DNA from: an uncultured archaeon
GTDB taxonomy: Archaea > Asgardarchaeota > Jordiarchaeia > Jordiarchaeales > Jordiarchaeaceae
Assembly: GCA_964510585.1 (NCBI GenBank)
Contig: CAZECW010000206.1
Coordinates: 1 to 5,156 of the forward strand
DNA: 5,156 nt
Direction of reading: 5' to 3'
Below the pieces are notes generated by a model, which was not told where the DNA came from, searched no databases, and worked only from the letters and a program-made list of their open reading frames with translations. This document shows, one piece after another, positions 1 through 5,156 of this stretch (its first letter is position 1; every line of letters starts with the position of its first letter). The position numbers were made by a program, and so were the translations under genes.

Positions 1-115
1 AGAACAGGCAATCTTGTACCTCTCCTTCTCATAGGCAGCAATAACGTCTGGAGGGCCAGCCTTAATTTTGTCCCAGTCTGGAAAATCAAACCACATCTTA
101 TCATAGTGCAGACAG
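1..115 (+). repeat. Terminal direct repeat, copy 1 (circularisation or assembly overlap)
   Basis: Bases 1-115 (agaacaggca...gtgcagacag) are identical to 5042-5156 by direct comparison. The repeat lies inside a coding sequence, which is typical of a contig-end overlap rather than a biological terminal repeat. Confidence 0.98.
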
Positions 116-1251
116 GTTTTAAGAGCATCCTCTATTGGCCAAACATGATCACTACCTATGAGATACGCGTATTTTCCATGTGCCTGAAGCAGTATGTCTG
201 CATGGCGTCTTAAGTCTCCGCCTGTGATTAGTGTTCCTCCCGGCGGCCAGTGCACCTCTTTACAAAGCTCCACGTGGTACTGTATCAGGTCTGCAGTCAT
301 GTCAGTACCCATCACGTTTATGCCGTCGCAGAAGAACATTATGTCTGTGCCTGCGTCCCTCACTGCTCTGTGGTGCCTGATACAGAACCTGAGAGCCTCC
401 CTCATACACATGTGCAGCCACTCTGGATTACGTTTGTACATCAGAGCTCTTTCCCTATGTCCCAACGTGGGTCCGATGGCACCACCTGCAGTGGAGAGGG
501 GACCCACGCAGGTATTTGTCATGAGGGGCATGACTCCCCAGAGCCCAGCTCTTCTGAGATACTCTTTAATAAATTTGATCTCCCACAACTGCATGGCGTA
601 GGCTCCATAATCCGCTTCGGGTACTTTATGTGAAAGGAACGGCGCTGTTCTGAAAGGTAGCCATGGAACTTGGAATCCGGTTTCCATTGCTCCGGCGCTT
701 CTGCACACGGGAGCAGAGGTTTCCTTAAGATAAACGTGACCACCGTACTCTGCTTCTCCGTAAGTGATTTTGTGAATGAAAACTATGTCTGTTGCAAACT
801 TTGCCACGGCCATATTTGACGCTATAACGTGTAGCTTAGGATACCTGTGAAAATCAACACTCTTCAGTATTACTCCATAGGCGTCTAGAATCCTGGGGGC
901 GTTAGTGGCCATAGCGTAGAGTCCCCCCATTACTGGGCAGCGGTCCCTTTCAACGCCGTAGGCGGTTGCCCAGTACCTGTCTAAGGGAGTCATCTTCTCC
1001 TTAGCTATGTTCTCATGCATCTTAAGCATTATCCTCTCCATAATTAGTAATTCCTCTTCTGACCATTCTGGGGGTTTGAAGTTCCAGTACCAGTCTGGTA
1101 TTTTCAGCTTCTCCCAAATTTCCCATTCTTTGTATGCGTAATCGCACCAGTCCGCGGCCTTTTTCCCTCCGGCTTCCGCCGGCTTTTCCGAAACGGTTGT
1201 GTAGGGTTCTGGTTTCTTATACCAGGATAGGTATTCTTCACCCTCGGGCAT
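1..1251 (-). CDS. URO-D/MtaA-CmuA superfamily corrinoid-associated methyltransferase-like protein, residues 1-417 of 458 (continues across the overlap to 4916)
   Basis: Manual translation from ATG at 1251 is open with no stop to base 1 (MPEGEEYLSWYKKPEPY...KERYKIACS). It is absent from the ORF track, presumably because it runs off the window edge. GAGGTG RBS at 1258-1263. MTPLDRYWATAYGVERDRCPV (from residue 87) matches the family N-terminal MTPxER...GxxxDRxPV motif. It starts 22 bp downstream of a corrinoid protein gene. Confidence 0.88.
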   Translation of the reverse strand, partial: MPEGEEYLSWYKKPEPYTTVSEKPAEAGGKKAADWCDYAYKEWEIWEKLKIPDWYWNFKPPEWSEEELLIMERIMLKMHENIAKEKMTPLDRYWATAYGVERDRCPVMGGLYAMATNAPRILDAYGVILKSVDFHRYPKLHVIASNMAVAKFATDIVFIHKITYGEAEYGGHVYLKETSAPVCRSAGAMETGFQVPWLPFRTAPFLSHKVPEADYGAYAMQLWEIKFIKEYLRRAGLWGVMPLMTNTCVGPLSTAGGAIGPTLGHRERALMYKRNPEWLHMCMREALRFCIRHHRAVRDAGTDIMFFCDGINVMGTDMTADLIQYHVELCKEVHWPPGGTLITGGDLRRHADILLQAHGKYAYLIGSDHVWPIEDALKTCLHYDKMWFDFPDWDKIKAGPPDVIAAYEKERYKIACS

Positions 1252-1257
1252 TTTCCA

Positions 1258-1263
1258 CACCTC
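1258..1263 (-). promoter_or_regulatory. Ribosome-binding site GAGGTG
   Basis: Minus strand reads GAGGTG-TGGAAA-ATG(1251). It sits in a 22-bp intergenic gap, consistent with an operon. Confidence 0.8.
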
Positions 1264-1273
1264 AAAAACCCTT

Positions 1274-1918
1274 TTAGGCCTCCTCCATCAGTTCTGTGGC
1301 TAGCTGCACGGCTGCCAGTGCATCCCGTGCAAAGTAGGCACCTATGGCCTTGGCGTACTCGGGCCCAGTCGCCCATCCACCAATCATGTACTTGACGGGT
1401 AGCTTCTCCCTCTCAATCATCTCCTTGAGGGTCTTCAGCTTGTCCAGACAGCCGGTTATCGCGGAGGCTGCGCCTATGATGTCTGCATTTTTTTCTTTGG
1501 CAGCCTGAATGAACTTTTCCAGAGGCACGTCCTCTCCCAGGTCGGTGACCTCCCAGCCTGCAGATTCAAACATTGTCACCACAACAGATTTCCCTATGGT
1601 ATGCAGGTCTCCCTCCACCATTCCAATAACTAGTTTGCCTGCCACCTCCGACTTTTCAGCCTTCAGGTGGGGCCTTATAACCTCAAGCACCGCCTTCATG
1701 GCCTCCCCAGCCATAAGCAGATCAGTGAGTGAGGCTCCTCCTAGGCCTGAGGCGTACATTTCTCCAGCCTTCATCATGCCTGGAGTGCATCCCTTGTTCA
1801 ATATGTCGATGGCCGAAATTTTCTTAGCAAGCGCCTGCTTGGCGAGGTCCGCTGCGAGCAAGTCGTCACCATCAACAAGAGCCTGGGACAACCTCTCAAG
1901 CAACTCCTTCTCCGACAC
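1274..1918 (-). CDS. Corrinoid (B12-binding) methyl-carrier protein, MtaC/MtbC/MttC-like, 214 aa
   Basis: N-terminal helical cap domain followed by a Rossmann B12 domain. GKLVIGMVEGDLHTIGK contains the DxHxxG motif (His106, 1601-1603), followed by DLGEDVP..KFIQAAKE..ADIIG and MIGG. GTG start preceded by GAGGGAT (1922-1928). Confidence 0.95.
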   Translation of the reverse strand: MSEKELLERLSQALVDGDDLLAADLAKQALAKKISAIDILNKGCTPGMMKAGEMYASGLGGASLTDLLMAGEAMKAVLEVIRPHLKAEKSEVAGKLVIGMVEGDLHTIGKSVVVTMFESAGWEVTDLGEDVPLEKFIQAAKEKNADIIGAASAITGCLDKLKTLKEMIEREKLPVKYMIGGWATGPEYAKAIGAYFARDALAAVQLATELMEEA

Positions 1919-1964
1919 AGCATCCCTCTACTGAGTTTTTGCTTTAAGTATTTTTTTTAACTTT

Positions 1965-1982
1965 TATTTAAAGTTTATTATT
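1965..1982 (-). promoter_or_regulatory. Putative archaeal promoter (TATA box TTTAAATA with A-rich BRE-like upstream sequence) of the corrinoid operon
   Basis: Minus strand reads AATAATAAAC-TTTAAATA (1972->1965), 46 nt upstream of the GTG. That leaves room for a short leader containing the RBS. The region is AT-rich, so chance matches are possible. Confidence 0.6.
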
Positions 1983-2119
1983 ATAAAAACAGATGTGGTG
2001 CAAGTTAGCTCGGCCGTGTGGCGCCTGAGACGGCTTTTTAAACGGATTGGTAGAGTTAAGTTAGTGGGTTAGGAATCTGATTAGTGTGAGTGCAACTTAG
2101 CCCTGAGATTGCTTGATTG

Positions 2120-2189
2120 CGTGTGTCTCGGAATATAACTTTCAAAAAGGGATTAGATACAAATGAGTCGCGGCAAAACGTGTGTCTCG
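2120..2189 (+). repeat. Two exact 11-bp direct repeats CGTGTGTCTCG (2120-2130, 2179-2189)
   Basis: Direct reading; 59-bp period; GC-richer than the surrounding intergenic DNA. Confidence 0.7.
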
Positions 2190-2260
2190 TTCCCTTTTTT
2201 GGGCTTTGTGGTGTTTTATGATTTTTTCAAATCTTTCTTGGGCTAGATGGAGATACTTTG

Positions 2261-2360
2261 TTACATAATTTTATTTTTTCAATTTATTTATATATTTTAA
2301 TGAATTTTTTTGTAATTCTACATTTTTAATTTAAAAAAGATTAAGAAAAATAAATAAATT
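2261..2360. other. Extremely AT-rich tract (92% AT) with an 11-bp inverted repeat
   Basis: Manual count gives 8 G/C in 100 bp. AATTTATTTAT (2281-2291) is the reverse complement of ATAAATAAATT (2350-2360). Confidence 0.85.
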
Positions 2361-2590
2361 TATTAGAAGAATTATGCAAAGCAGTTGGAGAAAGGGCCTT
2401 TTTGGTGATTTTCCGATTTGGACTACTCTAAAAAAATGGTAGACTGGGTGTAAATCTGAGTTGTAAGGAGTGGGGGGTGACATAGAAAAGTTTAGCTTCA
2501 TTAAAAAGGAGCGTTTATACTGTTTCTCCTACAATTATGGAGCCGCAAAACAAGGGGGAAGCCGATTAATCCTACGCCCAAGGGAGGTCG

Positions 2591-2608
2591 AGAAAAAGGT
2601 TATATTAA
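2591..2608 (+). promoter_or_regulatory. Possible BRE/TATA (AGAAAAAGG-TTATATTA) upstream of the nuclease gene
   Basis: Purine-rich run directly followed by a TTATA-like box. An alternative TTTAAAT lies at 2624-2630, so the assignment is ambiguous. Confidence 0.35.
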
Positions 2609-2684
2609 TTAAGCTAGTTAATCTTTAAATTTCAGTGATAATTTTTGAATGTATTGAAAGTGAGTGTCTAGAGGAGTGTGTGGA

Positions 2685-3143
2685 ATGTCTCTTAAAGATT
2701 TTTCCAGATATTTTGCTGAAAAGTCCCTGGTTAAGGATCAGGTTGAAAAAGTGGTTGAGACTCTAAGAGTAAAGTTGAGTGGTGGGGTTGTGGAGTTTGC
2801 TGATGAGGAAGATTTGAAGGATAGGGTTAGAGACATTTGTTTAAGCTTTGACCCATACCTTTTACGTGACCAAGTTAGACAGGGCTATATGGGTGCCTAT
2901 AACATAGACTTTATTCTGTGGAGGGGTTTGCTGGCTATGGAGGTTAAACTTGTTAGAAATAGAGAGGATTTGGAGAGAGCGGTGACGGAGATGGTTTCTC
3001 ACATCCCAACTCTGAGCAGTCTTTACAGTAATGTTCTCTTTCTAGTCTACGACAGTAATGAGGTTATAGGGAATCTCGACGAATTCAAAGGCAATATTGA
3101 GAGTAAATCTGATAATATTAAAGTATTGATAATTAAAGGCTAA
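2685..3143 (+). CDS. Stand-alone PD-(D/E)xK restriction-endonuclease-fold protein, resembling the REase_DpnII-MboI-type domain, 152 aa
   Basis: Motif order E.DL (41-44), NIDF (D75), AMEVK (E86, K88), a helix, then LFLVYDS...IGN..EF...IE...I.V.II. This matches my recollection of the family. ATG 2685 follows GAGGAGTGTG (2671-2680) and is preferred over GTG 2664. Confidence 0.7.
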   Translation: MSLKDFSRYFAEKSLVKDQVEKVVETLRVKLSGGVVEFADEEDLKDRVRDICLSFDPYLLRDQVRQGYMGAYNIDFILWRGLLAMEVKLVRNREDLERAVTEMVSHIPTLSSLYSNVLFLVYDSNEVIGNLDEFKGNIESKSDNIKVLIIKG

Positions 3144-3169
3144 AGATTGGAAATTAAACCTAAATTCGC

Positions 3170-3178
3170 AAAAAAGAA
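3170..3178 (-). terminator. Putative oligo-T terminator (TTCTTTTTT) downstream of the GcvH-like gene
   Basis: Minus-strand T-tract about 20 nt after the TAA at 3199, in the gap between convergent genes. Confidence 0.4.
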
Positions 3179-3198
3179 TAAGTGCCCCTCTTGGAGTA

Positions 3199-3720
3199 TT
3201 ATTGTTCCTCTATTGTGTAGCCCTGTTTTGCCTGCTTTACGAGTTCCTCGTCTTCTGAATACTCTATTATATCTTTAATAATCCATTTTATGGCTTCTTC
3301 CCCTGTTAGGAGGTTCTTTATTTCAGCATCATAGTTATCTGGTTTGAGAACGAGGAACCATCCATCCGTGTAGGGATTTCTAATATTGTGGGGTGGCGAG
3401 GATACTCTATCGGGGTTAACTTCAACGATGGTTCCTGTGAGTGGGGCGTAGAATGGCCCTATGTATTTCACTGTTTCAAGAAGGCCGTAGGGTTGATCCT
3501 GTTTGAGATGTGTCCCTGCGGGTGGCAATTCTATAACGTATGGTAGGGGATGACTGATAGTGGTTACCATCATTGGTATAGCTCCAAAGTAATCTAAACC
3601 CAAGCGCACATTTCCGTCATCTAGCCTTTTTACCCAATTATGCCCCCGCTTATTATGTGAGTAGTAAAGATCTAGGGGAAAAAACATCTCTCCTATTCTG
3701 GCGACTTTCATTTCAATCAC
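3199..3720 (-). CDS. Glycine cleavage H-protein-like (GcvH/LbpA-type) lipoyl carrier protein
   Basis: HNWVK...VRLGL, ELPPAG, YGLLETVKYIGPFYAPLTGTIVEVN and NPYTDGWF follow the H-protein pattern. The lipoyl Lys is conserved (K85, 3466-3468). The true start may be ATG 3711, preceded by GTGAT. Symbol withheld because no gcvT/P/L are present and the protein is divergent. Confidence 0.9.
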   Translation of the reverse strand: MIEMKVARIGEMFFPLDLYYSHNKRGHNWVKRLDDGNVRLGLDYFGAIPMMVTTISHPLPYVIELPPAGTHLKQDQPYGLLETVKYIGPFYAPLTGTIVEVNPDRVSSPPHNIRNPYTDGWFLVLKPDNYDAEIKNLLTGEEAIKWIIKDIIEYSEDEELVKQAKQGYTIEEQ

Positions 3721-3772
3721 TGAATTTTTAATTTAGTTTGCAAGTCCTTGTATATCTTCGCTCATCATAAGT

Positions 3773-3952
3773 TTAGTGTGGTCTGGTAGTGTAATCCAAT
3801 TCCCTGAAATATAACTCGGCGTATCCACAGTTGAGGCAAACATAGGCATCGGCGGGGAAATTTCTTCCAATTTCAAGTATTGAAGGTACGGATACCTCCT
3901 TCCTCTGAATTTTGTCAGAGTTGCATTTTACGCATTTAGTTACCTTAGACAT
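3773..3952 (-). CDS. Small zinc-ribbon protein, 59 aa (CxxC...CxxCGYxExY type)
   Basis: Manual translation: MSKVTKCVKCNSDKIQRKEVSVPSILEIGRNFPADAYVCLNCGYAELYFRELDYTTRPH. GAGGTG RBS at 3963-3968. Not in the ORF track. Confidence 0.85.
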   Translation of the reverse strand: MSKVTKCVKCNSDKIQRKEVSVPSILEIGRNFPADAYVCLNCGYAELYFRELDYTTRPH

Positions 3953-4337
3953 AATATACCCACACCTCTGTTTAAAGTTTTTAAATTTTGATTCTTAAAA
4001 TAATCACCTTTTTTCTTATTTTCTTTATAATTACTTATTAGCTTTTCTACCACCTCTAGAATGCTTCTAATTTGAAATGTTAAGGAGCAACTAACATTTT
4101 GACACCGAGTTCGGAGCATTTTTTTGTCCTTATAAATCTAAAAATAATTTGTGCAGTTTGAGTTGTAAGGCTTCAACCGATGAATTTAATTAGAAATATT
4201 ACTAGTAAGTTAAGAGCCTTTGATCGCACTAGCTGTAAAAAAGGGGAAATTGGTGGTGAACTTATTGTTTTTTTGAATCAGATGAGAGACAGCCGCCGAA
4301 GGAAAAGCCATGCAATTCATTTTCGCATAATTACGAA

Positions 4338-4484
4338 GTGGACATCAGCCGTTTTCGCTGCCCGCACTGCGGTTCCTTCACTGTTGAAATTTTAAGGGAT
4401 GAACCTGTGATAACCGGCGTCTTTCGTATTTTCAAGTGTAAGAAATGTGGTAAGGAGTTTGGCAGATTTCTCGGTCAAGGCTAA
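4338..4484 (+). CDS. Small zinc-ribbon protein, at least 48 aa (CPHCG...CKKCG); start uncertain
   Basis: Manual translation from GTG 4338: MDISRFRCPHCGSFTVEILRDEPVITGVFRIFKCKKCGKEFGRFLGQG. Its TAA (4482-4484) overlaps the TAG of the convergent SCP2 gene (4481-4483). The frame is open back to 4260 with no ATG. Confidence 0.72.
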   Translation: MDISRFRCPHCGSFTVEILRDEPVITGVFRIFKCKKCGKEFGRFLGQG

Positions 4485-4882
4485 CTGGACTCTCCTTTAT
4501 ATTTAGGATGTCCCGGAGGATAGTACGGTTCGTAGGACGCGAATGTCTTGTATCTCTGAAGGACGGCGACGTCGCCCTTAATTTTCATTTCACCCGAGTA
4601 GTACTTTTCAGCCAAATCAACTTCCTTAGTGTGCTGGCCTACCCAGTCATCACTAGTCATGATTACAACAGCGTTGACATCTGTGGGCTCCCTTGTAACA
4701 ATTTCTGAATCTTCGAGTATCCCGTCCTCCTTAAACTTAAGCAGGTATCCGCGGTTAAGATCCCTCATCCAGAAACACATTTTAAAGGGTTCCCAACCTT
4801 CTCCGTAACCCTCCTCAGATAAAGCCTTCATCCTTTTAACGCTGTGATGAAAGCACGCATCAGCCTGCTCTATTGTAGCCAT
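4481..4882 (-). CDS. SCP2 (sterol carrier protein 2)-like lipid-binding domain protein, 133 aa
   Basis: VIMTSDDWVG...VDLAEKYYSGEMKIKGDVAVLQRY matches the SCP2 signature (..D...+..G.LD...A+MSGKLKI.GD...L.K). Preceded by GGAAGTGTGGTG and starts 33 bp after the methyltransferase-like gene's stop. Confidence 0.8.
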   Translation of the reverse strand: MATIEQADACFHHSVKRMKALSEEGYGEGWEPFKMCFWMRDLNRGYLLKFKEDGILEDSEIVTREPTDVNAVVIMTSDDWVGQHTKEVDLAEKYYSGEMKIKGDVAVLQRYKTFASYEPYYPPGHPKYKGESS

Positions 4883-4915
4883 TGCACCACACTTCCTTTA
4901 ACAAGAAGCTAATTT

Positions 4916-5156
4916 TTATGGTTGTTCCCATCCCTTGGGGTAAGAGCCGTACTTTTTAGATGCGTCAACCCAGGCTTGATAGTGCTCCATAGGTATCCAG
5001 TAGTCACCGGGTCCAGGGTTCCAGTACTTGCTCTTGGGGTCAGAACAGGCAATCTTGTACCTCTCCTTCTCATAGGCAGCAATAACGTCTGGAGGGCCAG
5101 CCTTAATTTTGTCCCAGTCTGGAAAATCAAACCACATCTTATCATAGTGCAGACAG
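4916..5156 (-). CDS. C-terminal end of the same URO-D/MtaA-superfamily protein (unique part 4916-5041 = residues 418-458 plus TAA)
   Basis: In frame with 1-1251 across the overlap (ACS|DPK). KAGPPDVIAAYEKE...WNPGPGD...IPMEHYQAWVDASKKYGSYP matches the family C-terminus (GTPEEV...PGC...P.EN..A.V.A.K.YG.YP). The 73-aa ORF in the track is this fragment. Confidence 0.88.
   Translation of the reverse strand, partial: CLHYDKMWFDFPDWDKIKAGPPDVIAAYEKERYKIACSDPKSKYWNPGPGDYWIPMEHYQAWVDASKKYGSYPKGWEQP
5042..5156 (+). repeat. Terminal direct repeat, copy 2
   Basis: Exact 115-bp copy of 1-115. Unit length after trimming is 5,041 bp. Confidence 0.98.

Follow-up and report, generated by a model that had tools for sequence, protein, structure and literature searches.

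Overlapping ends of a 5,156-bp Asgard archaeal contig probably reflect an exact repeat in tandem corrinoid methyltransferase genes rather than a circular element

Excised elements of the Yucahu-i type in Asgard archaea have been recognized from reads that support both integrated and circular forms, from a short att repeat and from elevated coverage (PMC11529989). In a closed Freyarchaeia genome, mobile elements could not be confidently identified from changes in read-mapping abundance, and neither excision sites nor co-existing circles were detected (PMC11529989). Non-methanogenic methylotrophy has been proposed for the Freyarchaeia and Jordarchaeia (PMC11291895, PMC9723677), and in Freyarchaeia an MtbC-like corrinoid protein and gcvH are found near mtrH (PMC11291895); a described corrinoid methyltransferase system is CdmBCA, the chloromethane system of Acetobacterium (PMC13222342). 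Here we analyzed a 5,156-bp stretch of DNA from an uncultured Asgard archaeon (the window), which is the entire contig C206 of bin G000 (3.78 Mb, 217 contigs, 96% complete) and carries genes for a predicted corrinoid methyltransferase (MT) and its cognate corrinoid protein (CoP). An earlier note, made from the sequence alone, had described the window as an apparently closed 5,041-bp unit. We propose instead, with a probability of about 0.87, that C206 is a pseudo-circular assembly product, consisting of the chromosomal segment between two copies of an exact repeat (R) that lie in tandem MT paralogues.

The overlap of the contig ends is as the earlier note described it: positions 1..115 of the window are exactly identical to 5042..5156, and no longer terminal identity was found. 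When the ends are joined, the contig forms a cycle of 5,041 bp and a minus-strand open reading frame (ORF) is restored, of 461 aa from a GTG codon or 458 aa from an ATG codon, the ATG being the start used by orthologues. The orderly operon that had been noticed was also recovered (corrinoid protein, MT, SCP2, zinc ribbon, GcvH-like protein and DpnII-like fragment), as was the lack of replication and mobility genes. The ORF families were searched in Pfam, NCBIfam and PHROGs, and no ORF of the window matched a Rep, Orc1/Cdc6, partition, relaxase, integrase, transposase, phage or plasmid family.

Exact 141-bp end overlaps were present in 41 contig pairs of the bin, indicating that it was assembled with a de Bruijn graph of k = 141 (MEGAHIT-style). 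A closed unitig would overlap by k, and the observed 115 bp is therefore no signature of k-mer closure. Bases 1-141 of C211, a 6,383-bp contig of the same bin, are the reverse complement of window 5016-5156, with the first mismatch at base 142. Beyond the point of divergence, C211 carries the last MT codons, a second SCP2-like gene (SCP2-B) and genes for a methylmalonyl-CoA mutase, a ChsH2-like protein, a short-chain dehydrogenase and two CoA-transferase subunits, which are genes of ordinary chromosomal metabolism. Since C211 shares the terminal 141-mer of C206 and then diverges, the cycle has an exit and is not an isolated component of the graph.

We set a prediction before testing it, namely that a repeat slightly longer than k would leave an overlap of 282-|R| and a second entry diverging from the window at about 141-142. 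An independent contig from the Joint Genome Institute (JGI), L025 (3,023 bp), carries a CoP gene, a 458-aa MT gene and SCP2-A. L025 differs from the window by 187 mismatches (about 10%) in CoP and the body of the MT gene, the last of them at window 142; from 141 to 1 and then from 5041 to 4051 it shows one mismatch in 1,132 bp (99.9% identity over 5041-4051). The end of this divergence at 142, together with the divergence of C211, defines R as window 141..1 plus 5041..5016, a total of 167 bp. The overlap then follows by arithmetic (2 x 141 - 167 = 115), and the two ends of C206 coincide precisely with the first and last 141-mers of R. R, which exceeds k, is common to C211 from the same assembly and to L025, L028 and L032 from other assemblies. 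The default output minimum of MEGAHIT is 200 bp, and a 167-bp R unitig falls below it; binning would in any event have passed over so short a sequence. The overlap equals 2k-|R| rather than k because the unitig of R itself is too short for output. The earlier note had allowed that the 115 bp might simply reflect a repeat or a k-mer overlap, and the geometry of R and k = 141 in the contigs supports this in substance. We also considered that 115 might represent an intermediate MEGAHIT k (99 or 119) with read extension, or a trimmed 141-bp overlap, and dropped both proposals as 2k-|R| fits exactly.

The same bin contains a second false circle, C109 (L010:1-3607), which is a fully visible analogue of C206. 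C109 overlaps itself by 126 bp and lies in the order C93, a 155-bp exact repeat, C109, the repeat and C106. This repeat sits in tandem B12-binding radical-SAM paralogues, and the entry (C93) and the exit (C106) are both in the bin. 'Disconnected' MEGAHIT dead ends, in which the last 140 nt of a contig match an internal site of another contig, are frequent in the bin; they explain the 126 bp of C109 and are not needed for C206.

The gene order of the window was recovered in linear context in relatives, a search that the earlier note had proposed as a check. In the closed 3,576,204-bp genome of Ca. Freyarchaeum deiterrae (G005), the cluster is present once in a linear chromosomal context, in the order Cpn60-like, CoP, MT, SCP2, (zinc ribbon), GcvH, DpnII-like, radical SAM and, further on, mutase. 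This cluster is collinear with the minus strand of the window, and the orthologue of the C211 mutase is located 4 kb beyond the nuclease gene. A 119-kb Freyarchaeota contig (Ga0315314_1000102) carries MtrH, Cpn60-like, CoP, MT, SCP2 (131), zinc ribbon, GcvH, DpnII-like, radical SAM, a second MT and a second SCP2 (130), with the two MT genes on the same strand and 5,458 bp apart. In the sister species G004, contig C106 runs from an MT 3' end and SCP2-A through to the nuclease, the spacer and a CoP 5' end at 83% DNA identity to the window. The orthologues of the genes that flank the cluster in G005 adjoin nothing informative in G000.

To describe how the two MT paralogues are joined to the two arms that follow R, we refer to the MT body of the window as type 1, that of L025 as type 2, the downstream arm of the window as A and that of C211 as B. 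The evidence on these junctions consists of assembled contigs from the bin and five other assemblies. The type 1 and type 2 proteins are 92.8% identical in amino acid sequence. Type 2 is joined to A in L025. Type 1 is joined to B in L032, from a strain of 97% identity in a different JGI sample, where CoP1, MT1, SCP2-B and the mutase lie on one contig, and in contig C25 of the sister species G004 (type-1 sites 118 vs 28; B sites 121 vs 25); a full-length type-1 protein in the database also ends with B-specific residues. The single-copy orthologues in G005 and G002 are type-2-like, followed by an A-like arm. The junction that would close the circle, type 1 to A (window 142 to 5015), was found in none of the contigs of these six assemblies. 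The claim of a closed unit is thus not borne out, given the exit into C211, the entry in L025 and the absence of type-1-to-A sequence from the assemblies examined.

We searched for further junctions in public sequence. A degenerate pattern spanning the R junction had no match in a metagenome contig collection, which shows no L025-type contigs either, so that this result is evidence neither for nor against. A second scan, with a back-translated motif, gave the 119-kb contig as its sole match. Exact database look-ups of CoP1, the nuclease and the truncated MT2 product predicted for the entry contig returned no match, and an exact look-up of the upstream corrinoid protein, CoP2, returned L028 only.

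The simplest scheme that would account for the junctions has two modules in tandem on the chromosome of the bin genome, in an order that we infer from the contigs and relatives described above. Along one strand, module 1 would consist of CoP2, MT2, SCP2-A, small ORFs, the zinc ribbon, the GcvH-like gene and the DpnII-like gene. An AT-rich spacer with a miniature inverted-repeat transposable element (MITE) would follow, and then module 2, consisting of CoP1, MT1, SCP2-B and methylmalonyl-CoA mutase onward. With R longer than k, the graph would have two entries (MT1 and MT2) and two exits (the A and B arms), and the C206 unitig would start at the last 141-mer of R, take in the A arm, the spacer, CoP1 and the MT1 body in turn, and stop at the first 141-mer of R. 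The R unitig would be too short for output, and the entry contig bearing MT2 would be short and left out of the bin. The 458-aa ORF that is 'restored' by joining the ends would then combine the body of MT1 with the tail of MT2. The true 3' end of MT1 is most likely on C211, and the MT 3' end on the A arm is most likely that of MT2, the upstream paralogue, for which the bin contains no body. The MT ends on the A and B arms differ in 2 of 79 residues.

Some of the results weigh against this proposal. No second MT copy, that is, no CoP2-MT2 entry contig, was found in the bin, and the entry is known only from the assemblies of other samples. All of the assemblers used k < 167, and the contigs that cross R rely on read-pair resolution of the repeat and could be misjoins. 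The type-2-to-B junction, which deletion or circularity of the 5-kb segment would be expected to produce, was found once, in L028. L028 is a SPAdes contig (ENA ERZ505355 NODE_11273) with a coverage of 8.6x, and its bases 1-69 are an untrimmed Illumina Nextera adapter/index sequence that contaminates this end of the contig. L028 represents either a genuine deletion haplotype or a misjoin across R, which exceeds the SPAdes k.

A free 5,041-bp circle might exist beside the chromosome as the reciprocal product of homologous recombination between the two R copies. CoP1, a hybrid MT1/MT2 gene, SCP2-A, GcvH and the spacer would all lie on the circle, which would be non-replicating or dependent on the host and would leave a deletion chromosome with CoP2-MT2-R-SCP2-B. 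Direct repeats of 167 bp are a plausible substrate for recombination and the graph does contain a cycle; moreover, L028 has the predicted deletion join of type-2 body, R and B arm, and its few type-1-like sites are far from R. However, no contig joins type 1 to A, the circle would have no replication function, and L028, with a coverage of 8.6x and a terminal adapter, may have been misjoined by SPAdes. In the closed Freyarchaeia genome, too, neither excision sites nor co-existing circular forms were detected (PMC11529989), and we regard such a circle as quite unlikely. A wider version of the proposal is that Jordarchaeia populations are polymorphic through recombination at R, with the deletion haplotype CoP2-MT2-R-SCP2-B (as in L028) and a reciprocal 5,041-bp circle bearing a complete corrinoid module. 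This is quite unlikely in our estimation; if true, recombination at R would provide copy-number variation of a methylotrophy module without a dedicated mobility gene.

A cycle with an exit also resembles a collapsed array, as expected if the 5-kb unit were amplified in chromosomal tandem to at least two identical copies that the assembler collapsed, and a duplication did occur in the history of the locus. In the relatives, among them the sister species and the 119-kb contig, the A-type and the B-type module each occur once, however, and the type-2-to-A join in L025 explains the second entry without amplification, while no contig joins type 1 to A. An amplified array is in our view very unlikely. 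As for an autonomous plasmid or minicircle devoted to a B12 methyl-transfer module and dependent on host factors for its maintenance, the only points in its favor are that the ends overlap and that C206 itself includes no chromosomal flanks. The overlap differs from k, the graph exits to chromosomal genes, there is no replication gene, the gene order lies within closed or long chromosomal contigs of relatives, and the composition and the MITE match the chromosome, which makes an autonomous element extremely improbable. An integrative element fared no better, in that the window carries no integrase or transposase and the relatives have the same genes in place on their chromosomes.

The earlier note had listed a host-dependent minicircle or excised cassette, a collapsed tandem amplification and a graph artefact as possible origins. 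The graph artefact is essentially borne out. The amplification does not stand as a collapsed array, although an old and diverged tandem duplication of CoP-MT-SCP2 is real, with only 167 bp identical. The minicircle or excised cassette gains no support, given the exit to C211, the predicted entry, the linear context in relatives and the match of MITE and composition. The note had also placed the biological junction in one of the AT-rich spacers. The spacer at 1919-2663 is indeed the sole novel adjacency with respect to G005, but it is intergenic between tandem modules and is not an att site.

C206 belongs to the genome of the bin, which is assigned to Candidatus Jordarchaeia/Freyarchaeota by its named congeners and by public entries for this protein cluster. 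C206 carries the MITE of that genome, and its composition is typical of the bin, with a tetranucleotide correlation of 0.924 to the rest of the bin (5-kb chunks: median 0.947, 5th percentile 0.875). The runs that contain the window stretch are all hot-spring metagenomes.

We compared the two MT paralogues by aligning window 1-1251 plus C211:116-241 with L025:656-2032. MT1 (with the B end) and MT2 (with the A end) are 87% identical in DNA sequence, and 105 of the 140 differing codons are synonymous. The identity is distributed as a mosaic in which nearly identical 60-nt blocks (0-4 mismatches) are interspersed with others that are about 25% divergent (11-19 mismatches); the longest exact run is the 167-nt R (gene nt 1111-1277). 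CoP1 and CoP2 are 97% identical. The two MT copies of the 119-kb relative are fairly evenly about 79% identical except in the first ~120 nt, and their longest exact run is 92 nt at the 5' end. The mosaic suggests that patchy, recurrent gene conversion may have taken place between the tandem paralogues.

The 458-aa MT matched no curated family, scoring below every curated threshold in Pfam and NCBIfam, and it is annotated as "hypothetical" in the named public records examined. An exhaustive profile search with MT collected about 47 representatives, among which the remote ones (20-29% identity, ~400 aa) belong to the URO-D family over their full length and pass the PF01208 threshold. A profile of the close homologues alone found no match in the PDB. 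With the remote homologues included, the profile matched MtaA (4ay7; E = 5.6e-19) and CdmB (9rui; 2.4e-08). An AlphaFold2 model from 12 close homologues was unusable (predicted local distance difference test, pLDDT, of 46); addition of the remote homologues raised the pLDDT to 82, and the resulting model superposed on 4ay8 with a target-normalized template-modelling (TM) score of 0.82. On profile and model evidence, MT is a predicted TIM-barrel methyltransferase of the URO-D/MtaA superfamily.

The MtaA and MtbA methylcobamide:coenzyme M (CoM) methyltransferases (MT-II) have a zinc site, H-x-C...C, that activates the thiol. These motifs are absent from the MT family, as 'LHICGN' and 'PGCGI' of 4ay7 align to non-His, non-Cys positions in the profile alignment. 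Because the zinc ligands of MtaA are not conserved, MT is most likely a substrate:corrinoid 'MT-I' enzyme like CdmB rather than a CoM-methylating enzyme. The window would carry one complete predicted corrinoid methyl-transfer module (MT and its cognate CoP) together with the accessory genes of the neighboring module. The adjacent SCP2-like gene might, speculatively, hint at a hydrophobic methyl donor.

The features of the window are collected in Table 1. The DxHxxG motif of CoP1 reads DLHTIG. SCP2-B (130 aa) on C211 is a paralogue of SCP2-A and 68% identical to it. Orthologues of the nuclease ORF occur at the equivalent position in G005 (160 aa) and L031 (154 aa, PF18742), indicating that the nuclease is part of the locus and not of a mobile element. 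GcvH-like orthologues that retain the lipoyl-lysine context (L020:11744-12268, L031:7006-7521) are a constant part of the corrinoid methyltransferase cluster throughout the genus. A region of about 386 bp between SCP2-A and the zinc ribbon (window 4038-4424), which includes a 71-aa plus-strand ORF (4180-4395), is absent from G005 and present in G004; by this comparison it appears to be a lineage-specific insertion. An Rfam scan of the window gave one sub-threshold chance match only.

Table 1. Coordinates of features in the 5,156-bp window and the basis for their assignment
Feature	Position	Strand	Basis or remark
First 141 nt (gene orientation) of exact repeat R	1..141	-	k-mer vertex where the two MT paralogues converge; 1-115 is the reported overlap; the contig ends exactly on this 141-mer
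MT1 body (type 1), codons 1-417 from ATG; predicted URO-D/MtaA-fold corrinoid methyltransferase	1..1251	-	Fold evidence; type-1 bodies continue into the B arm in L032 and G004 C25
CoP1 corrinoid protein, 214 aa	1274..1918	-	Pfam B12-binding_2 cap and B12-binding domain (1.8e-18 and 1.1e-16); NCBIfam methyltransferase-cognate corrinoid protein (6.9e-40)
AT-rich intergenic spacer between the two tandem modules	1919..2663	.	Only adjacency without counterpart in closed genome G005
Degenerate ~135-bp MITE copy	2246..2380	.	Terminal inverted repeats and target-site duplication
DpnII/MboI-like nuclease-domain ORF, 159 aa	2664..3143	+	Pfam PF18742 (5.4e-06), slightly under the curated cut-off
GcvH-like lipoyl-carrier protein, 173 aa	3199..3720	-	Pfam GCV_H (1.6e-20); lipoyl-lysine context ETVKY retained
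Small zinc-ribbon protein, 59 aa	3773..3952	-	Weak Pfam Zn_ribbon_13 match; 59-aa gene at the equivalent place in L031
Insertion-polymorphism site	4050..4051	.	Three JGI contigs depart from the window here into a dispersed element
SCP2-A, sterol-carrier-protein-2-like, small hydrophobic-ligand-binding, 133 aa	4481..4882	-	Pfam SCP2 (8.5e-06)
MT gene 3' end, A arm, last 79 codons and stop	4916..5155	-	L025 joins a type-2 body to the A arm
Last 141 nt of repeat R	5016..5156	-	Branch vertex with two exits, the A arm of the window and the B arm of C211; 5042-5156 duplicate 1-115

Small mobile elements were found at several points around the locus. The MITE is ~135 bp in length and very AT-rich, with terminal inverted repeats of ~13 bp (GCTGTGTTGCAT...ATACAACACAGC) and 7-bp target-site duplications. 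A BLAST search with the low-complexity filter off recovered 25 copies in the bin, including that of the window (others are, e.g., C20:41665-41783 and C121:60814-60932); nine of the 25 are at contig ends, which points to the MITE as a major cause of the fragmentation of the bin. L025 (2898-3023), L026 and L027, from three samples, depart from the window exactly at 4051 into a dispersed element, and their tails are 100% identical to G000 C166:14-141, C63:502-628 and C142:2647-2773. Position 4050/4051, downstream of SCP2-A, is thus the site of an insertion polymorphism that involves a second kind of mobile element. A third dispersed element is located ~75 bp upstream of CoP1 in L032:1-160, 89% identical to G000 C67:3081-3217, with further copies in C189, C66 and C205. 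The inter-module spacer is a hotspot for small mobile elements.

To call C206 circular would wrongly count a "metabolic minicircle" free of replication genes among the very few Asgard extrachromosomal elements on record, and would also record a chimeric MT with the body of one paralogue and the tail of the other. More generally, a graph artefact may still lie behind a terminal overlap that differs from k: where a repeat exceeds k by a little and its tiny unitig is discarded, the contig ends overlap by 2k-|R|. On the positive side, the results highlight that Jordarchaeia and Freyarchaeia carry tandem, partly homogenized copies of a corrinoid methyl-transfer module, and MT becomes a candidate substrate-specific demethylase in their proposed non-methanogenic methylotrophy.

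Compared with known corrinoid methyltransferase systems, the locus resembles those of MtaA of Methanosarcina (4ay7) and CdmBCA in that the gene for a predicted URO-D/MtaA TIM-barrel MT adjoins one for a cap-plus-Rossmann corrinoid protein with a DxHxxG motif, and it resembles the mtrH locus of Freyarchaeia in the GcvH-like gene of the cluster and in the MtrH gene nearby in the 119-kb relative. It differs from them in that its MT is 458 aa in length, falls below the family thresholds, has no MtaA-type H-x-C...C and is paired with an SCP2-like gene. With excised Asgard elements such as the 10.9-kb Yucahu-i of Atabeyarchaeia (PMC11529989), C206 shares small size, an Asgard host and an AT-rich candidate junction, but its genes are only metabolic and are syntenic with the chromosomes of relatives, and in the assembled contigs it displays none of the hallmarks by which the Yucahu-i circle is recognized. 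Like the untrimmed k-mer overlap of a true circular contig, C206 has an exact terminal direct repeat and a gene that is restored by joining the ends; in a true circle the overlap equals k, whereas C206 has a different overlap, an exit in the graph, an entry seen in the assembly of another sample and a linear context in relatives. The closest match is to repeat-induced pseudo-circular contigs of de Bruijn assemblers, which start and end in the same exact repeat longer than k and share their terminal k-mer with other contigs, as C206 does; C206 departs from the usual form of these contigs in that its overlap is 2k-|R| = 115 rather than k.

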